From Planctomycetota bacterium (GTDB lineage: Bacteria; Planctomycetota; PLA2; JAEUHO01): a stretch of DNA of 64,000 nucleotides. The stretch is from contig CBDCTJ010000007.1 in assembly GCA_965222115.1 (NCBI GenBank), positions 2,400,001-2,464,000 of the forward strand, in the 5' to 3' direction. Under the pieces are notes generated by a model, which was not told the origin of the DNA, searched no databases, and saw nothing but the letters and a program-made list of their open reading frames with translations. Position 1 is the stretch's first letter. Every line of letters starts with the position of its first letter. A program made the translations under genes and the position numbers. This document shows positions 44,844 to 52,199 of the stretch, one piece after another.

Positions 44844-44920
44844 GGGGGCATAGCTCAGCTGGCTAGAGCACTGGCTTTGCAAGCCAGGGGTCAAGGGTTC
44901 GAATCCCTTTGCCTCCACCA
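44844..44920 (+). tRNA. tRNA-Ala(TGC) with encoded CCA
   Basis: Acceptor GGGGGCA/TGCCTCC with G3:U70, anticodon arm CTGGC-TTTGCAA-GCCAG, T arm AAGGG-TTCGAAT-CCCTT. Confidence 0.96.
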
Positions 44921-46260
44921 CTTTCAATCCCGCAACAAACCAACGTTTCATCGGGTTCGTTGCGGGTTTCGCGTCGATCGCCTTCTGCGTTCCGCCTGTC
45001 CACTTGGTTGCAACCAGATGAGACCGAATGCACCGAAATGGCACCAGAAGGGGTACAAATTGGAGCACAGTCTGCTGCGTCTCCAGAGGCGAGCATCTCG
45101 CCGATCACATGAACGGATTCGGGCGCATTTACAGCCGAGCGGTGATCGAGCAAGCGCGGATCTGTATAGACCGACATCGTCGTTTCAATGTTGGCATGAC
45201 GCGCAAGATGCTGTGTTACTTGCGGGTCTACTTTCGCAGCACGCAGCCCGGTGACGAATGTGCATCGAAGGCTATGGAAATCTACGTAGCGGCCTTGCAT
45301 ATCCTGATACGCGATACCGGCCGCCTCCAAATCCTTGCGCATCGTACGCATGACAGGAATCCACCCAGAAGGAAACACCTTCGCATCTGGATTGTTCACT
45401 TCCGCTGACCGTTGTCGAAGGGCTGGCGCGAGGCAGGAGGGAAACGATGCGTACTGTTCCCGCCTGCTCTTGGCATTGGCGGCACGAATTCGAATCGTCT
45501 CACGCTCCAAATCGACGTCGGCCCATGTGATTGACCCGAGTTCTTTCCTGCGTATTCCGGTAAGGGCCGCGAATCCGTAGAGAAATGAGCGGCGAGAACC
45601 TTCCTTTGTCAATCGCACGCGCTCTTTTCCCGTGACTCCCTTGTGGATACGCGTCTTCAACGCATAGTCGAGCGGTCTAGCAGCGGCCGCCTGTATCAGC
45701 CTGGCGAGTTCTTCGGGCGCCAACGCTCTTCGCTCCCTAGCCCGATCCTCTGCCTCATTCCTCGGCTTGAGGGCCGTAAACGGATCTCTGCGCACCCGTT
45801 GATGTCGGTGGAGCCAGCGCCCGAACTGCCGAAGCGCCTGATAATGGCGGTTCACAGAGCGAGCGCGGAGGCCCTGATTTCCGATATCCGAGAGCCACCT
45901 CGCTGCGAGCGCACCGTCAAGTTGATCCAGCGATGTCAGCCGCGTATCTGTAACGAATCGGCGTAGACACTTCATACGGTCTGTGAAGTGTCCGTCGCTC
46001 ACTCGCCTTGACCGCAGTGCAGACTCAAAGTCAAGCACATGTTGCGCGAGGGGGCGCGTCGAATGCTCGTCAAAGTGATCCGTGAGCCCCGCAGCTTTCC
46101 GCTGTTCGGTGCGAATCATCTCAGCCTCGCGTGCTCCAGCCGCCCGCTTGTCAGTTAGCCCGGTTGACTTTCGAAATTTGCGGCCCTCAACACTGAAACG
46201 CGTCCACCAAACAGGCGAGAGCCTTCCCGACTTTGGGTTCTTGCGTCGATAGAGGCTCAT
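44863..46260 (-). CDS. Tyrosine integrase whose C-terminus reads through the att site
   Basis: LTGIRRKEL, AKSRR, FHSLR, ARH, SVY: complete R-K-HxxR-H-Y set. Stop codon lies inside the tRNA D arm. Confidence 0.93.
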   Translation of the reverse strand: MSLYRRKNPKSGRLSPVWWTRFSVEGRKFRKSTGLTDKRAAGAREAEMIRTEQRKAAGLTDHFDEHSTRPLAQHVLDFESALRSRRVSDGHFTDRMKCLRRFVTDTRLTSLDQLDGALAARWLSDIGNQGLRARSVNRHYQALRQFGRWLHRHQRVRRDPFTALKPRNEAEDRARERRALAPEELARLIQAAAARPLDYALKTRIHKGVTGKERVRLTKEGSRRSFLYGFAALTGIRRKELGSITWADVDLERETIRIRAANAKSRREQYASFPSCLAPALRQRSAEVNNPDAKVFPSGWIPVMRTMRKDLEAAGIAYQDMQGRYVDFHSLRCTFVTGLRAAKVDPQVTQHLARHANIETTMSVYTDPRLLDHRSAVNAPESVHVIGEMLASGDAADCAPICTPSGAISVHSVSSGCNQVDRRNAEGDRRETRNEPDETLVCCGIESGGGKGIRTLDPWLAKPVL

Positions 46261-46496
46261 CGCTTCCTTCCTCTCTGCTTCTCTAGAGCTTTCAAGCCAA
46301 TATCCAACGCCTCGCGGAATATAACGCTACGACTAATGGGCTTGTCCTTCGTACCGTGCCGCCTCTGCAGCCGCTTGGCCCGTTTCACAAGGTCCGCCGG
46401 AAGCCTCATGCTCACGAGCATTTCAGAAACGGTGCCGTACGGCTCTTTCTCGATTCGATTCTTCATAGGCATGAGTGTATCACAGATTGGTTTCAT
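46257..46496 (-). CDS. Ribbon-helix-helix/CopG-like regulator
   Basis: VSMRLPADLVKR...SRSVIFREALDIGL; ATGA-coupled to int. Confidence 0.7.
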   Translation of the reverse strand: MKPICDTLMPMKNRIEKEPYGTVSEMLVSMRLPADLVKRAKRLQRRHGTKDKPISRSVIFREALDIGLKALEKQRGRKR

Positions 46497-46705
46497 GGTC
46501 GATGCGTCCTTTCATCTATGTAGTGCTCCAGGTGTCCGGGGCGGACCATGATTCGTTTCGGTGAGACGCGGACTACGGGAAACGAGCCACTGGCGATTCG
46601 TGCTCGCAGAGTCCGTTCTGATAAGCCGAGGATCTTGGCGGTTTCCTTAACCGTGAGCAGGGGTCGGGGCGCTCCCTGCGGTTTTTGGCGGCTTCTAGGT
46701 TGCAT
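46493..46705 (-). CDS. Excisionase-like HTH protein
   Basis: LLTVKETAKILGLSERTLRARIASG.FP.VRV; GAGGGG RBS. Confidence 0.85.
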   Translation of the reverse strand: MQPRSRQKPQGAPRPLLTVKETAKILGLSERTLRARIASGSFPVVRVSPKRIMVRPGHLEHYIDERTHRP

Positions 46706-46833
46706 GGCCGTCCCCCTCTTCTCTTGCAAGGGGTTGTGTCCCTCAACGAGTTTCTGTCCGGTTGAGGACCTGAAATAGGGGTTGATAACGGCCTCTCCCA
46801 TTCGCTGCATAGGTGCGGCAGAAAGGGAGAGCG

Positions 46834-48156
46834 ATGAGCGAGAAACAGAGGTCAGATCGAGGATCGTCAGGCAAGGGGCGCGACGGGGGCGGGAAAGAGT
46901 TCCGTCCGCCGAGGCGCAATCGTTCGGTGGGAACGCGACGTCCCGGTTCCAAGGGGGAGTACTCTGGGGAAGAGCGGTTGTTGCTGTTGGACACATGGCA
47001 GCGATCGGGCTTGCCGGCGACGGAGTTTGGTCGCTTGGTGGGCATCACGCCTCAGACGTTGAGTCGTTGGAAGCAACGGTTTGATGCAGAAGGCCCTGCC
47101 GGGCTATTGGGCTATCGCCGTGGTCAGCGAGGCAGCCGCCTGCCGGAACATGTGCGTCGAGCCATTTTGATGTTGAAGGAACAGCATCCGGATTGGGGGC
47201 AAGACCGCATTCACGACATGTTGCTGCGCTCCCAAGGTCTGCAAGCCAGCGCGGGCGCGGTGCAGCGGGTGTTGAAGGAGGCGGGGTACGAGGTCCATGC
47301 TTTTCGGACGAGGCCCAACCCACCCAAGCCTCAGCGTTTTGAGCGCTCTCGTCCCAACGATCTTTGGCAAACCGATCTGTTCAGCTTTGTGCTCAAGCGC
47401 CAACGCCGCCGTGTGCACCTGGTTGCTTACATGGACGATCATTCCCGCTTCATCGTTGGGTATGGGCTGCATGCATCGGCTTCGGGCGCGCTTGTGCGCG
47501 AGGTGTTTGAGTCCTCGATTGCCAACTTTGGCGCGCCGAAGGAGATTTTGACCGACAACGGGACGCAGTTTCAGACGTGGCGTGGGAAGAGTGCGTTTAC
47601 CAAGCTCTGCGAGCGGCGAGGCATTAAGCAAGTTGTGGCGCGTCCACGGCGTCCGCAGACGCTGGGCAAGATCGAACGATTTTGGGGCACGATTCATCGG
47701 GAGATGATTCAAGCCGCCATTTTCCGTGACCTGGACGAGGCGCGCGAGCGCATTGCGCACTTTGTGGGCTATTACAACTTTCAACGCACCCATCAAGGGA
47801 TCGACGGCTTGGTACCGGCGGATCGCTACTTCGAGGCGGTGCCCGAGATACGCGCCACCATCGAGGCGAACGTGGCCAAGAACGCCAAAGAACTTTCCCT
47901 TCAAGGCAAACCGCGTAAGCATGTGTATTTGACGGGGCGTGTGGGTGAGGAGTCGATCTCGCTTCATACCGAGGGCACGAAGGTTGTACTCACGGGCGAA
48001 GAGGGTGTTCGCGAGGAAGTGGATCTTTCTGCGCCCGGGCGCCGTGTGTCGCTTGAGGCGTCGGATCCGGGCACGAGTTCATTGGATGAGGTGCTAACGG
48101 AACTTGAGACATTGACGCCGAGCGAGGCGAACGACGAGGAGGGAGGTGCAAGATGA
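46834..48156 (+). CDS. IS481-like DDE transposase (HTH, HTH, rve core, C-terminal extension)
   Basis: WQTD, DDHSR, LTDNGTQF, GKIERFW, YNFQRTHQG. Confidence 0.92.
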   Translation: MSEKQRSDRGSSGKGRDGGGKEFRPPRRNRSVGTRRPGSKGEYSGEERLLLLDTWQRSGLPATEFGRLVGITPQTLSRWKQRFDAEGPAGLLGYRRGQRGSRLPEHVRRAILMLKEQHPDWGQDRIHDMLLRSQGLQASAGAVQRVLKEAGYEVHAFRTRPNPPKPQRFERSRPNDLWQTDLFSFVLKRQRRRVHLVAYMDDHSRFIVGYGLHASASGALVREVFESSIANFGAPKEILTDNGTQFQTWRGKSAFTKLCERRGIKQVVARPRRPQTLGKIERFWGTIHREMIQAAIFRDLDEARERIAHFVGYYNFQRTHQGIDGLVPADRYFEAVPEIRATIEANVAKNAKELSLQGKPRKHVYLTGRVGEESISLHTEGTKVVLTGEEGVREEVDLSAPGRRVSLEASDPGTSSLDEVLTELETLTPSEANDEEGGAR

Positions 48157-48611
48157 CCAAGGGACTTGCAGCGCTTCAAGGGAGCAAAGCGGCGAAGCGT
48201 TTCATGCTGGTGCTGTTGGAGGCACTGTCGGGCGCGTGCAGCACGACGGAAGCGGCCAAGCGCTTGGAGATCTCCAGTGCGCGGTACTACCAACTGGAGC
48301 TGCGTGCGCTTCAGGGAATGATGAGTGCGCTTGAGCCGCGTTGTAGGGGACGGCAGAACACGCCCGAGCGCATGATTTTGATGCTTGAGAAGGAGAAGCG
48401 TGATCTGGCACTGGAGCTACGACGTGCGCAGAACTTGTTGCGCGCGGCGCGGCGTACGGTGGGCATCAAAGCGTCGAAGAAGCGTGCGGGCACGAAGAAA
48501 AAGCGACGACGTAAGAAGCCACGGGCGCGCGTGGTGCTGGAGACGTTACGAGCAAAGGAGGTGGGCGATGGGTCGACGCAGCCAGACCGAACCCCTCATT
48601 CAGGCGCTTGA
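48153..48611 (+). CDS. HTH plus coiled-coil accessory protein A
   Basis: STTEAAKRLEISSARYYQL..LEPRCRGR, then heptads and a basic tail; ATGA overlap and GGAGG RBS. Confidence 0.8.
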   Translation: MTKGLAALQGSKAAKRFMLVLLEALSGACSTTEAAKRLEISSARYYQLELRALQGMMSALEPRCRGRQNTPERMILMLEKEKRDLALELRRAQNLLRAARRTVGIKASKKRAGTKKKRRRKKPRARVVLETLRAKEVGDGSTQPDRTPHSGA

Positions 48612-48969
48612 TGCCAGTGAGCTGGCGCGCGAGCGCGTAACGATCATTCTTCTCACGCTAACGGGTGATTGGAGCGTGGCCGATGCGATGGAGCGGCTCT
48701 CGATTTCGCGCACACGGTTCCAGGATCTTCGAAGGACGATGTTGCAAGCGGCACTGTTCGCGTTGGAACCGGGCCGAGCCGGACGCCCGCCTCGATCACG
48801 TGATCCGCGTAAAGAGGCCATGGAGTCATTGCGCAAAGAGATCGCGACCTTGGAACAGGATCTCAAACGCACGCGTGTGCAACTCGAGCTTGCTCGGGGT
48901 CCAGCGGCCAAAGCGATCCAGCGTCGATTGGAGAGTGCGTTTCTTTCCAAGACCTGGAGCAAGAAATGA
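48568..48969 (+). CDS. HTH plus coiled-coil accessory protein B (paralog of A)
   Basis: AAGGAGGT RBS; SVADAMERLSISRTRFQDL..LEPGRAGRP, then heptads. Confidence 0.8.
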   Translation: MGRRSQTEPLIQALDASELARERVTIILLTLTGDWSVADAMERLSISRTRFQDLRRTMLQAALFALEPGRAGRPPRSRDPRKEAMESLRKEIATLEQDLKRTRVQLELARGPAAKAIQRRLESAFLSKTWSKK

Positions 48970-50084
48970 AAGTCTACGTCAGTTCCCAAGCGCAGTGCGC
49001 CCACGACCGCCGTGATCGCGCCGTGCAGGTGGTGCGAGCGGCCGCGCCTCAGGTGCGCGTTGCGGTGCGCAACGCGGTCGCCAGCACCGACCAGGTAAGT
49101 GAGCGAAGCATTCGGCGTTGGGATCAGCGTGAGCGCGAAGGCACACTGAAGCCTAAGAATCGTGGCCCCAAGCCGCGTGCCGTTGATCGGGACACGCGTC
49201 AAGGCGTGATTCTCCTCATGCTCGCCCTTGGGCCCTGCGCGGGTGTTGCACAGATTCGCTCGATGTTCGAAGAGGTTCCCTATCGCATGATCACAAGCAT
49301 GAAGAAGCGCCTAAAGCGCGTCCGGGAACGGCGTCGCGGACTGTACGAGCGGCGACTCAAGTGGATGCGTGCGGGCACGACATGGGCGATGGACTTTACC
49401 AAGCCCACCGCCAAACTTCCCGACGGCTACAAATGCTTGCTTGTGGTTCGCGACTTGGCGAGCGGGATGCGATTGACGTGTGTGCTGTGCAAAGGGGAGC
49501 GAACCAGCGAAGTGCTAAAGTGTCTGCGAACCCTCTTCGCGGCCTATGAGCCGCCGCTTGTGATGAAGCACGACGGCGGCCCGGCCTTCTTGGCCCACAA
49601 GACGCAGAAACTCCTAGAGTCCCGTGGCGTTGCGTCGTTGCGCTCGCCGGCCTACACGCCTTCGTACAACGGATCCGTGGAGCGCAGCCTTGGGTGGATG
49701 AAAAAGCGCATACAACACATCGCCCACCGCGAGGGCCATCCGGGCATCTGGGGCGCATGGGACATCGAACATGCACGGCGCCAAGCAAACGGAACGCTGC
49801 GCCCGTGGGGTCCAAGAGGACCTTCACCGATCGAGGCGTTTATGCAACGTGATCCCATTACGCCAATCGACCGAGAGGCATTCAAGCGTGCCGTCGATGA
49901 AGAAGCACAGCGTCAACTCGTAGCACACGCGCGAGATCCACGTAAGATGGATCGACCGATTGCGATGGACGTGCTGAAACGAAGATCAATCACACATGCG
50001 TTACAAAAACTCAAGTACTTAACGATTCGGAGAGGCCGAATATCAACACCCATTTCCCCAGAGCAACCGGACAGAAACTCGTGA
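48966..50084 (+). CDS. Second DDE (rve) transposase/integrase
   Basis: WAMDFT, RDLASG, KHDGGPAF, YNGSVER; ATGA overlap; stop codon lies within the right IR. Confidence 0.88.
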   Translation: MKVYVSSQAQCAHDRRDRAVQVVRAAAPQVRVAVRNAVASTDQVSERSIRRWDQREREGTLKPKNRGPKPRAVDRDTRQGVILLMLALGPCAGVAQIRSMFEEVPYRMITSMKKRLKRVRERRRGLYERRLKWMRAGTTWAMDFTKPTAKLPDGYKCLLVVRDLASGMRLTCVLCKGERTSEVLKCLRTLFAAYEPPLVMKHDGGPAFLAHKTQKLLESRGVASLRSPAYTPSYNGSVERSLGWMKKRIQHIAHREGHPGIWGAWDIEHARRQANGTLRPWGPRGPSPIEAFMQRDPITPIDREAFKRAVDEEAQRQLVAHARDPRKMDRPIAMDVLKRRSITHALQKLKYLTIRRGRISTPISPEQPDRNS

Positions 50085-50090
50085 GGGACA

Positions 50091-50585
50091 CATGTAATCC
50101 GTGGATGGGACTCCTCTCCAGGGTCAGAAATTAGAGTCGACGAAGTTGAACTTGACGAGGAATCAGAGAAGTCTGAAACCGATCAGCGAGACGAGCATAA
50201 GAAAGAGGTTTTGGCGGATCTCGCCGCGGAACTCCGCACTCTAATAGAAGCTCAGTATAACTACAGGGTTCGACTGGCTCGCTTGCTAGACATTCAGGCT
50301 AGATATGAAGAGTCTAAGTCTAATCAGCCAGACCCTAGTCCCCCGCCAACGTCGCTTCCACCCAAGGACAGTCCGCCAACTTCTCCCAAGGGTGATCTGC
50401 CAGTGTATCCTCCCAACCAGCCAGGCCCGGCTTTCGGGCCCTATTTTCCCGGCCCATGGGGTTATCCTATCCCTCCTCCATGGCTATGGCCATTGAGGAG
50501 AACGCAGCCTTGGTGGCCTCAAGCTCTCCCAGATCCGCTCAGATTTTGGGACCGGCGCACGGGCGAAGAGATCTTTCCGTGTTAG
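50091..50585 (+). pseudogene. Probable 5'-truncated gene remnant with Pro-rich C-terminus
   Basis: Frame appears open from near the element boundary with no good start or RBS. Confidence 0.4.
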
Positions 50586-51479: not shown

Positions 51480-52199
51480 ATGACGGTATCATCTCAAGAT
51501 GGGTGGCCCTGTGAAGCGAGGTTGCTGGTCGTGGCATATACGTCGCTCCATCTCACAGAACGGATGCACCCGTATTCAGCGCGGGCGGCTACGCCAAGAA
51601 ACCAGCAAGTATCCGGACCGACTACCCCTCCACTACGCGCTTTCGCCATCTCCATGTGGATTCACGGTGATTCTGGAACTACATTGACGTTGCGCTGCAA
51701 AGACCCTGCGCACGACATCGCCTATTGCGTTGGAACCGACAGCCCTGATCGAGACGTGGAGTTGGTAGGAGTGGACGTGGACGGCAAACTTGCGCGCTTT
51801 ACTGTCAGTCGCGGCGACGAGCAGCACACGTTCAGGTTCGATCGCAGCCGTGAGTTTCACAGCAGCGTGATTCGATTCAGTCCGCGTGGAGCAGCTTTAG
51901 GCGCTCAAGGCTATCAATCCCAAGCGGTCGCAAGCTCCAAGCACCCAGACCTCAAGGCAGTTCCTTACTTCGATGACCGCGGCAAGTGCATTGGCATGCG
52001 AGTGACGGGAATAAGATCCGAGTCGGGTTGGGCTGGCTTAGGCCTTACGCGTGGTGACGTACTACTCGCCGGAGATGGGATCGCGGTGAAGCAGCCTGCG
52101 ATGTTTCGAAAACGAGTGAGGGAAGGGTGGTCGCCAAAGAGTCTCAAGATAGGGAAGATTGACGGTAACGGGCTTCGAGAGGTCGAGCTGGGCGGGTAG
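51480..52199 (+). CDS. PDZ-domain protein (GspC C-terminal-like), possibly truncated
   Basis: GMRVTGIRSES..AGLGLTRGDVLL..DG pattern; poor N-terminus. Confidence 0.5.
   Translation: MTVSSQDGWPCEARLLVVAYTSLHLTERMHPYSARAATPRNQQVSGPTTPPLRAFAISMWIHGDSGTTLTLRCKDPAHDIAYCVGTDSPDRDVELVGVDVDGKLARFTVSRGDEQHTFRFDRSREFHSSVIRFSPRGAALGAQGYQSQAVASSKHPDLKAVPYFDDRGKCIGMRVTGIRSESGWAGLGLTRGDVLLAGDGIAVKQPAMFRKRVREGWSPKSLKIGKIDGNGLREVELGG

Follow-up and report, generated by a model that had tools for sequence, protein, structure and literature searches.

How many catalytic enzymes does a bacterial insertion sequence (IS) need to move? The question is raised by a 64,000-nt stretch of DNA from a Planctomycetota bacterium (assembly GCA_965222115.1, contig CBDCTJ010000007.1, positions 2,400,001 to 2,464,000 of the forward strand; hereafter, the window). 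Here a single pair of inverted repeats encloses the genes of two enzymes bearing the Asp-Asp-Glu (DDE) catalytic triad, DDE-1 and DDE-2, and of two small helix-turn-helix (HTH) proteins, HTH-A and HTH-B (A and B for short). We read this 3358-bp transposon, at 46735-50092 (+) of the window, as a four-gene element of the IS481/IS3 superfamily, whose members have the retroviral-integrase fold. Its mobility appears to need two distinct, catalytically competent DDE enzymes, which would meet in a mixed transpososome and split the steps of the reaction between them; we place the probability of this reading at roughly 60%. The four-gene, two-DDE, two-adaptor family to which the element belongs is apparently both widespread and undescribed.

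One mobile unit

A first-pass annotation of the window had recognized a single transposon at 46737-50090. One mobile unit is indeed what the copies of the element reveal, but its true ends lie 2 bases further out on each side, at 46735 and 50092, because the flanks of a second copy and of a solo left end diverge exactly there. The second full copy is 100% identical over 3359 bases and sits on the same contig in inverted orientation (G000:C7:3063957-3067315, minus strand). The solo left end, of 154 bp (L003, G000:C7:364508-364661), breaks off inside the start of DDE-1 and is what a third copy or a rearrangement has left behind. In this genome (G000), three left flanks and two right flanks thus diverge exactly at TGTGT and ACACA, the tips of the element. 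Two identical copies sharing the same ends imply that the four genes move as one unit and have been mobile recently; the element of the window is an autonomous, recently active insertion sequence.

At the ends one finds a perfect 19-nt inverted repeat (46746-46764 / 50064-50082), whose arms continue outward as far as TGTGTCCCTCA... (left tip, 46735) and ...TGAGGGACACA (right tip, 50092), with an additional A on the left. The 25-nt left tip occurs a single time in the window, against 0 occurrences in 100 shuffles. Each end is bipartite, with one terminal TGT box of ~29 nt and one subterminal box at ~40-65 nt. On the left, the terminal inverted-repeat box (TGTGTCCCTCAACGAG..., 46735..46764, +, 30 nt) is followed by the subterminal box (GAAATAGGGGTTGATA..GGCCTCTCC, 46772..46798, +). 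On the right, the subterminal box (50029..50056, -) also encodes the conserved DDE-2 C-terminus RRGRISTPI, and the terminal inverted-repeat box (50064..50092, -, 29 nt) contains the DDE-2 stop codon. No further copy of either the terminal or the subterminal box was found within the element, and the first-pass observation that there is no internal inverted repeat is thereby borne out.

Both boxes of each end are putative protein-binding sites. In a comparison of the ends of 27 distinct elements, which omitted L031, L049, L058, L062 and L095 for their doubtful tips and L153 as a duplicate of L022, the subterminal box at about position 40-65 is conserved in both ends. In 11 of the 14 measurable elements the left tip stands one base further from the CGAAAT core than the right tip does, and the fourth base, G in 25 of 27 right ends, is divided among G (14), C (12) and A (1) in the left ends. 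This left/right asymmetry is conserved across the 27 elements. In most of 32 listed relatives the element ends 8 nt past the DDE-2 stop.

Two enzymes and two small proteins

Between the repeats lie four overlapping, co-oriented genes in the order DDE-1, HTH-A, HTH-B, DDE-2, just as the first-pass annotation had them. DDE-1, an IS481-type transposase, is encoded at 46813..48156 (+) and would have 447 aa from the GTG at 46813; the ATG at 46834, giving 440 aa, is the likelier start because AAGGGAG precedes it. HTH-A (48153..48611, +, 152 aa) combines a helix-turn-helix with a coiled coil and a basic tail. Its paralog HTH-B (48568..48969, +) has 133 aa from the ATG at 48568, the point from which its homologs align, and the frame is open from 48385. 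DDE-2, a divergent integrase-fold DDE protein of 372 aa, is encoded at 48966..50084 (+), with its stop codon (50082-50084) within the right repeat. DDE-1 runs into A, and B into DDE-2, by an ATGA overlap, and A and B overlap by 44 nt. The genes form two modules, DDE-1 + HTH-A and HTH-B + DDE-2, predicted to be translationally coupled in one operon.

Both enzymes match the Pfam rve domain (DDE-1, 4.4e-20; DDE-2, 2e-12), and the triads that had been read from the sequence are present, as D188/D248/E288 in DDE-1 and D143/D203/E239 in DDE-2. DDE-1 further matches rve_3, HTH_32 and HTH_28, and rve is the sole Pfam match of DDE-2. Scored against the NCBIfam IS481 model (NF033577), DDE-1 reaches 230.1 bits, marginally above the cut-off of 224, and its score against the IS3-family model, 152.9 bits, is below the cut-off of 160. 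DDE-2 is below all NCBIfam IS-family cut-offs, its best score being that for IS481 (66.3 vs 224), with 51.9 for IS3. DDE-1 carries a conserved additional C-terminal region of ~100 aa; DDE-2 starts at a site of its own and includes a separate N-terminal helix-turn-helix region. The structural model of DDE-1 (predicted local distance difference test score, pLDDT, 77) is nearest in fold to IstA of IS21 (8q4d, E 1.6e-14), then to TnsB, MuA and the retroviral integrases. That of DDE-2 (AlphaFold2, pLDDT 89.4) is nearest to the integrases of foamy virus, Rous sarcoma virus and mouse mammary tumor virus, and the DDE-2 sequence profile matches integrase cores only. With 23% identity over 75 aa (E 0.06), the two enzymes are merely distant relatives, and DDE-2 is therefore not a recent duplicate of DDE-1. 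In the naming sources, relatives of DDE-2 are labeled 'transposase family protein' or 'DDE-type integrase' and nothing more.

The small proteins had been proposed to be paralogs resembling OrfA of IS3, and both parts of that proposal stand. A and B are 36% identical over 69 residues by BLASTP (E 1e-9) and align over 96 columns with an hhalign probability of 99.3% (E 1e-20), and matches to HTH_28 and HTH_Tnp_1 place both in the IS3-OrfA / IS481 N-terminal HTH type. HTH_28 is found in 28/36 HTH-B orthologs and HTH_Tnp_1 (IS3 OrfA type) in 23/36, the corresponding figures for HTH-A being 9/36 and 5/36; Atlas look-alikes of HTH-A carry the same HTH families. Fusions indicate that HTH-B is functionally tied to DDE-2: among the top 150 DDE-2 matches, 6 of the 28 representatives of at least 470 aa bear an HTH-B-like domain fused in frame before DDE-2, and in five of these six proteins B outscores A. 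Candidate DDE-1-A fusions in L052 and L074 were rejected, coordinate arithmetic placing the long DDE-1 frames out of frame with the A match.

Conservation of the layout

If the arrangement were a chance nesting of two elements, one would expect to meet the enzymes apart. An alignment-based scan of one genome per species, seeded with DDE-2, left 80 loci, 62 of them with at least 2600 bp upstream; a co-oriented DDE-1 is present in 56 of these 62, accompanied by two small-gene matches in 53 cases and by one in 3. A scan of metagenome contigs seeded with DDE-1 yielded 43 loci, and where identity is at least 48% and at least 1500 bp lie downstream (22 loci), DDE-2 follows in 20, the exceptions being L125 and the 32-residue fragment L133. 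The gene order is thus conserved across taxa in both search directions. The possibility raised at first pass, that DDE-1 and DDE-2 mostly occur separately with their own inverted repeats, is answered by the same counts, and the layout is evidently not a product of chance nesting. L033 and L037, tried as one-gene (DDE-2-only) elements, possess a right end only and were set aside as truncated remnants.

The traits that would mark out the family, namely the four-gene order, bipartite TGT ends and a right tip lying a few bases beyond the stop codon of DDE-2, are found in the window element and in most of its relatives. By the labels of the metagenome-assembled genomes (MAGs) concerned, these relatives fall into about ten phyla: Planctomycetota, which has most of them, Acidobacteriota, Gemmatimonadota, Elusimicrobiota, Thermodesulfobacteriota, Myxococcota, Pseudomonadota, Actinomycetota, Verrucomicrobiota and Nitrospirota. 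Outside Planctomycetota, the best-founded case is L036, on a 286-kb Sandaracinaceae contig. As for the size of the family, 1.84 billion proteins include 387 DDE-2 cluster representatives at E <=1e-30. A tblastn search of a plasmid collection with DDE-2 gave no match.

A divergent subfamily is also seen in metagenome contigs (L110-L112, L114), with a DDE-1 to DDE-2 gap of ~1.9 kb vs ~0.8 kb and weak A/B matches. Its small genes may differ from A and B or be more numerous.

Selection and co-divergence

Is the second enzyme merely present, or is it kept? Elements counted as intact had to show DDE-1 as a single tblastn match segment, reading frames 400-540 aa and 330-430 aa long, and an upstream end that was closed; 58 elements (57 loci and the window element) passed, 53 of them distinct. 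Alignments A2 and A3 omitted the near-duplicates L017, L077, L108, L111 and L112, and A3 was also without L061 and L072. Both triads are invariant in all 53 distinct elements, over a mean divergence of ~64%, so that the decay of one triad in homologs, which the first-pass annotation had held in view, is not seen. Both frames are fully open in 51 of the 53; L061 and L072 each have one stop in DDE-2. Ratios of non-synonymous to synonymous divergence (dN/dS), which it had also called for, point to purifying selection on each enzyme: in pairs with unsaturated dS (0.34-0.76) they are 0.06-0.18 for DDE-1 and 0.135-0.27 for DDE-2. One pair gave 0.06 for HTH-A and 0.09 for HTH-B.

The two enzymes have also diverged together, as long-standing companions would. 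Their pairwise distances correlate with a Mantel r of 0.77, a value as high being reached in 0/2000 permutations, and their trees have 19 common bipartitions, with 0.2 expected from label shuffling. DDE-2 diverges ~1.5 times faster than DDE-1. A selfish element is selected by way of its transposition, and neither triad has been lost; from this we infer that both enzymes are probably needed for propagation.

One pair of copies from a single genome (G013) shows a different pattern of divergence. L015 and L017 are 99.0% identical over 3412 bases; DDE-2 differs by 19 synonymous and 12 non-synonymous substitutions, DDE-1 by only 1. This distribution suggests mosaicism or gene conversion between subfamilies.

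Target sites

DDE transposition commonly leaves its record in the flanking DNA, and the first-pass annotation had looked to other genomic copies for such duplications. Copies are at hand, including the second full copy and the solo left end described above, and across 26 elements no consistent target duplication is found. In 13 copies from four genomes, with ends fixed by multi-copy comparison, duplications of 2-40 bp at the target site do not exceed chance: the duplication score is 0.54, vs 0.34 for mismatched flank pairs, and the best flank matches are one of 3 bp and one of 2 bp. A further 13 single-copy elements include one with a 3-bp match. This single-copy test omitted L031, L049, L058, L062, L095 and L153, L075-L078, L111 and L112 as already counted or duplicates, and elements with <25 nt of flank. 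When flanks were cross-paired between copies (a flank-exchange test), one 4-bp match was obtained, within the same genome.

The match belongs to L018 and L149, which lie 27 kb apart and inverted on contig C44 of G013; ACCT closes the left flank of one copy and opens the right flank of the other. A replicative inversion within one molecule that duplicated 4 bp would leave such a match, which could also be chance among 156 pairs. In other, single-copy elements the flanks just outside the tips are mutually inverted-repeat, as in L013 (7/9 bases), L023 (4/4) and L084 (7/8), and also in L080. About 1% of mismatched controls reach the inverted-flank score of L013, L023 and L084, and these four cases could reflect palindromic targets or longer true ends.

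The DNA abutting the left end of the second copy in the window's own genome (L002:4859-5138) is a dispersed repeat that begins at about the insertion point. Copies 77-90% identical are found in G000 at C7:2094401, C3:462539, C5:77352 and C7:515336, and the border of another repeat may be where the second copy inserted.

A proposed mechanism and its alternatives

How might two DDE enzymes divide the work? In the scheme that we favor, A and B would act as OrfA-like DNA-binding or bridging subunits, HTH-B partnering DDE-2, a pairing proposed on the strength of the fusions seen in some relatives. Both enzymes would be present in the transpososome, each doing a different chemical step, with the OrfA-like proteins placing each enzyme on its own box. 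Transposases of the IS3/IS911 type make an excised or circular intermediate. In our preferred version the IS481-type DDE-1 would likewise liberate or circularize the element, as IS3 and IS481 transposases do, and the integrase-like DDE-2 would then join it to the target. The conserved asymmetry of the left and right ends could tell the complex which end is which. The lack of a target-site duplication suggests a joining geometry that would differ from the staggered attack of single-enzyme DDE transposons. A stricter form of the scheme has an obligate heteromeric transposase of two DDE enzymes, each with its own OrfA-like adaptor and each responsible for one end or step, that integrates unstaggered and without duplication. 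This form we offer as tentative and lean against; if true, such obligate two-DDE, unstaggered integration would be a pathway not described for DDE elements.

Several considerations tell against a two-enzyme mechanism, in which mutual binding of the enzymes is conjectured and the need for both is implied indirectly. A complex prediction for DDE-1 (residues 46-447) with DDE-2, supplied with alignments for both, scored 0.00 and weighs neither way. Selection on a selfish element could equally preserve a regulator, not only a second catalyst. DDE-1 is missing from 6 of the 62 testable DDE-2-seeded loci, five of them truncated copies (L033, L047, L073, L088, L089) and the sixth a lone 33% homolog (L082). 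The loci come from MAG contigs, many of them short, and phylum labels may be wrong for some. Among 40 relatives searched with both copies and their flanks, the transposase genes alone matched, no flank was conserved and no empty site was found, so that the absence of duplication rests on flank comparison alone. Contigs of four runs from one study, probably of the source sample, likewise held no joint, circle junction or empty site, their loose ends being the flanks of other copies. Finally, duplications can be erased when recombination exchanges flanks or when transposition is intramolecular (PMC11708052).

That last point grows into an alternative account of the insertion sites, in which a normal short duplication is made and is secondarily lost, through later exchange of flanks by recombination or through an intramolecular origin of the copies. 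Both full copies of this genome do lie on one contig in inverted orientation, the inverted pair 27 kb apart in G013 (L018/L149) does have ACCT in common across copies, and duplications are reported to be often lost in just these ways (PMC11708052). We nonetheless think this account rather improbable, given that the left and right flanks of the two 100% identical copies, however cross-paired, have nothing in common with one another or with the solo end, that among the 13 copies of four genomes the G013 cross-pair alone scored at least 3, and that 12 of the 13 single-copy elements are also without duplication. A different alternative concerns the enzymes themselves. One of them, probably DDE-1, would be the transposase, and DDE-2 with B would regulate or inhibit transposition, serve in target choice or immunity, or catalyze a side reaction such as the resolution of intermediates, being kept for the long-term survival of the element. 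DDE-1 alone reaches the IS481 cut-off, and single-enzyme IS481 elements transpose; the ~1.5-fold faster evolution of DDE-2, with its higher dN/dS, speaks for this account, and IS3-type elements use truncated or alternative products as regulators. Yet a pure regulator needs no intact triad, and the triad of DDE-2 is kept in 53/53 elements at ~64% mean divergence. Its C-terminus and stop codon are, moreover, built into the right end, and DDE-1 loci with at least 48% identity and enough downstream DNA are nearly always followed by it (20/22). On balance we judge this alternative unlikely.

The two-enzyme reading must also be set against the possibility of an old accident: an IS inserting into or next to another, with subsequent loss of the inner ends, would have left two redundant transposases, each now a passenger of the other. 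Each module (DDE-1 + A; B + DDE-2) does resemble a complete IS3/IS481-like coding set, and such an origin is plausible for the ancestor of the family. Redundancy, however, predicts frequent loss or decay; instead one sees 51/53 elements intact, all 53 pairs of triads retained, purifying selection and co-divergence, with the order kept across about ten phyla (by MAG labels) and no remnants of internal repeats. As a description of the present state, the redundant-passenger accident is largely refuted, and we give it very little credence.

Genomic neighborhood

The transposon is located 27 bp upstream of an excisionase-like gene of HTH_17 type (~46493-46708, -), beyond which one finds a small TraM-like open reading frame (46257-46496, -) and a tyrosine-integrase gene (44863-46260, -), the 3' end of which is overlapped by a tRNA-Ala (44844-44920, +). 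Together these features (44844-46708) look like an integrated island at tRNA-Ala. On the other side of the element, a dispersed repeat of ~90 bp lies at 51538-51628 of the window, with copies 88-91% identical at C5:86708, C1:67718, C1:270154 and C7:2543888 of G000.

Comparison with known systems

With IS481 the element has in common a DDE-1 at the family cut-off, TGT...ACA tips, an HTH-HTH-rve architecture and the absence of a frameshift. IS481 elements are ~1-1.3 kb long. They encode one protein from a single transposase gene, whereas here 3.36 kb and four genes, with two DDE enzymes, lie inside one repeat pair, the second enzyme being far below the cut-off (66.3 bits). IS481 duplications are given as 2-15 bp, mostly 6, in the sections of PMC10045372 that deal with them, and flank comparison of the existing copies reveals none of this kind here. 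The likeness to IS3 resides in the small OrfA-like HTH and coiled-coil proteins, the position of B before an rve gene in the -1 frame, the B-DDE-2 fusions and the TG...CA tips. The differences are that B and DDE-2 (0 and -1 frames) overlap by ATGA only, with no slippery site or A-rich heptamer, that both DDE scores are below the cut-off of 160, that the element has a pair of enzymes and a pair of OrfA-like proteins, and that there is no 3-5 bp duplication.

The proposed pairing of two unlike nucleases within a transpososome recalls Tn7, with its TnsA and TnsB, as do the multi-box TGT...ACA ends and the resemblance of the DDE-1 fold to TnsB. In Tn7, TnsA is a restriction-enzyme-like nuclease rather than a DDE enzyme, TnsA and TnsB cut different strands, and a 5-bp duplication results. 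The present element differs in having no TnsA, TnsC-type ATPase or target selector (by Pfam), in the rve fold of its second enzyme, and in having no 5-bp duplication. IS21 (IstA + IstB), Mu and Tn552 are comparable in their multi-gene operons, TG...CA ends and multiple boxes, and IstA is the best structural match of DDE-1. Their partner protein is an AAA+ ATPase, whereas here it is a second DDE enzyme, no ATPase domain being found in the four proteins by Pfam or NCBIfam.

Two catalytic subunits, both retained, are also a feature of XerC/XerD and of TnpA/TnpB of Tn554, paired paralogous tyrosine recombinases in which each partner presumably serves a particular strand or site; no duplication accompanies the insertion of Tn554. 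Theirs is tyrosine-recombinase chemistry, and the likeness is an analogy only. Among DDE transposons, the eukaryotic Spy and PHIS elements are reported, in the relevant portions of PMC4122938 and PMC10045372, to insert without target-site duplication. They differ from the present element in belonging to an unrelated, PIF/Harbinger-like transposase superfamily with one catalytic protein. A nested or composite IS would be a further comparison, and here there are no internal repeats and the genes are linked and co-diverging. ISArsp14 and ISBli29, mentioned under 'large ISs with passenger genes' in PMC10045372, are unrelated: according to PMC6305408, a resolvase and an ATP-binding protein accompany their transposase.

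Searches of full texts, together with the NCBIfam IS-family models, turned up no account of a two-DDE IS layout, ISfinder and TnCentral lying outside the comparison. As currently annotated, such elements appear as two unrelated transposase genes and hypothetical proteins, with the consequence that IS counts and boundaries are misread in Planctomycetota and other environmental genomes. To our knowledge, all characterized bacterial DDE insertion sequences use one catalytic transposase, and the one well-known heteromeric case of which we are aware, Tn7, joins a DDE enzyme to a nuclease of a different kind. Set beside these, the family offers a natural system in which to study how catalytic steps may be split among integrase-fold enzymes, how the two ends may be told apart, and how DDE insertion may proceed without duplication.

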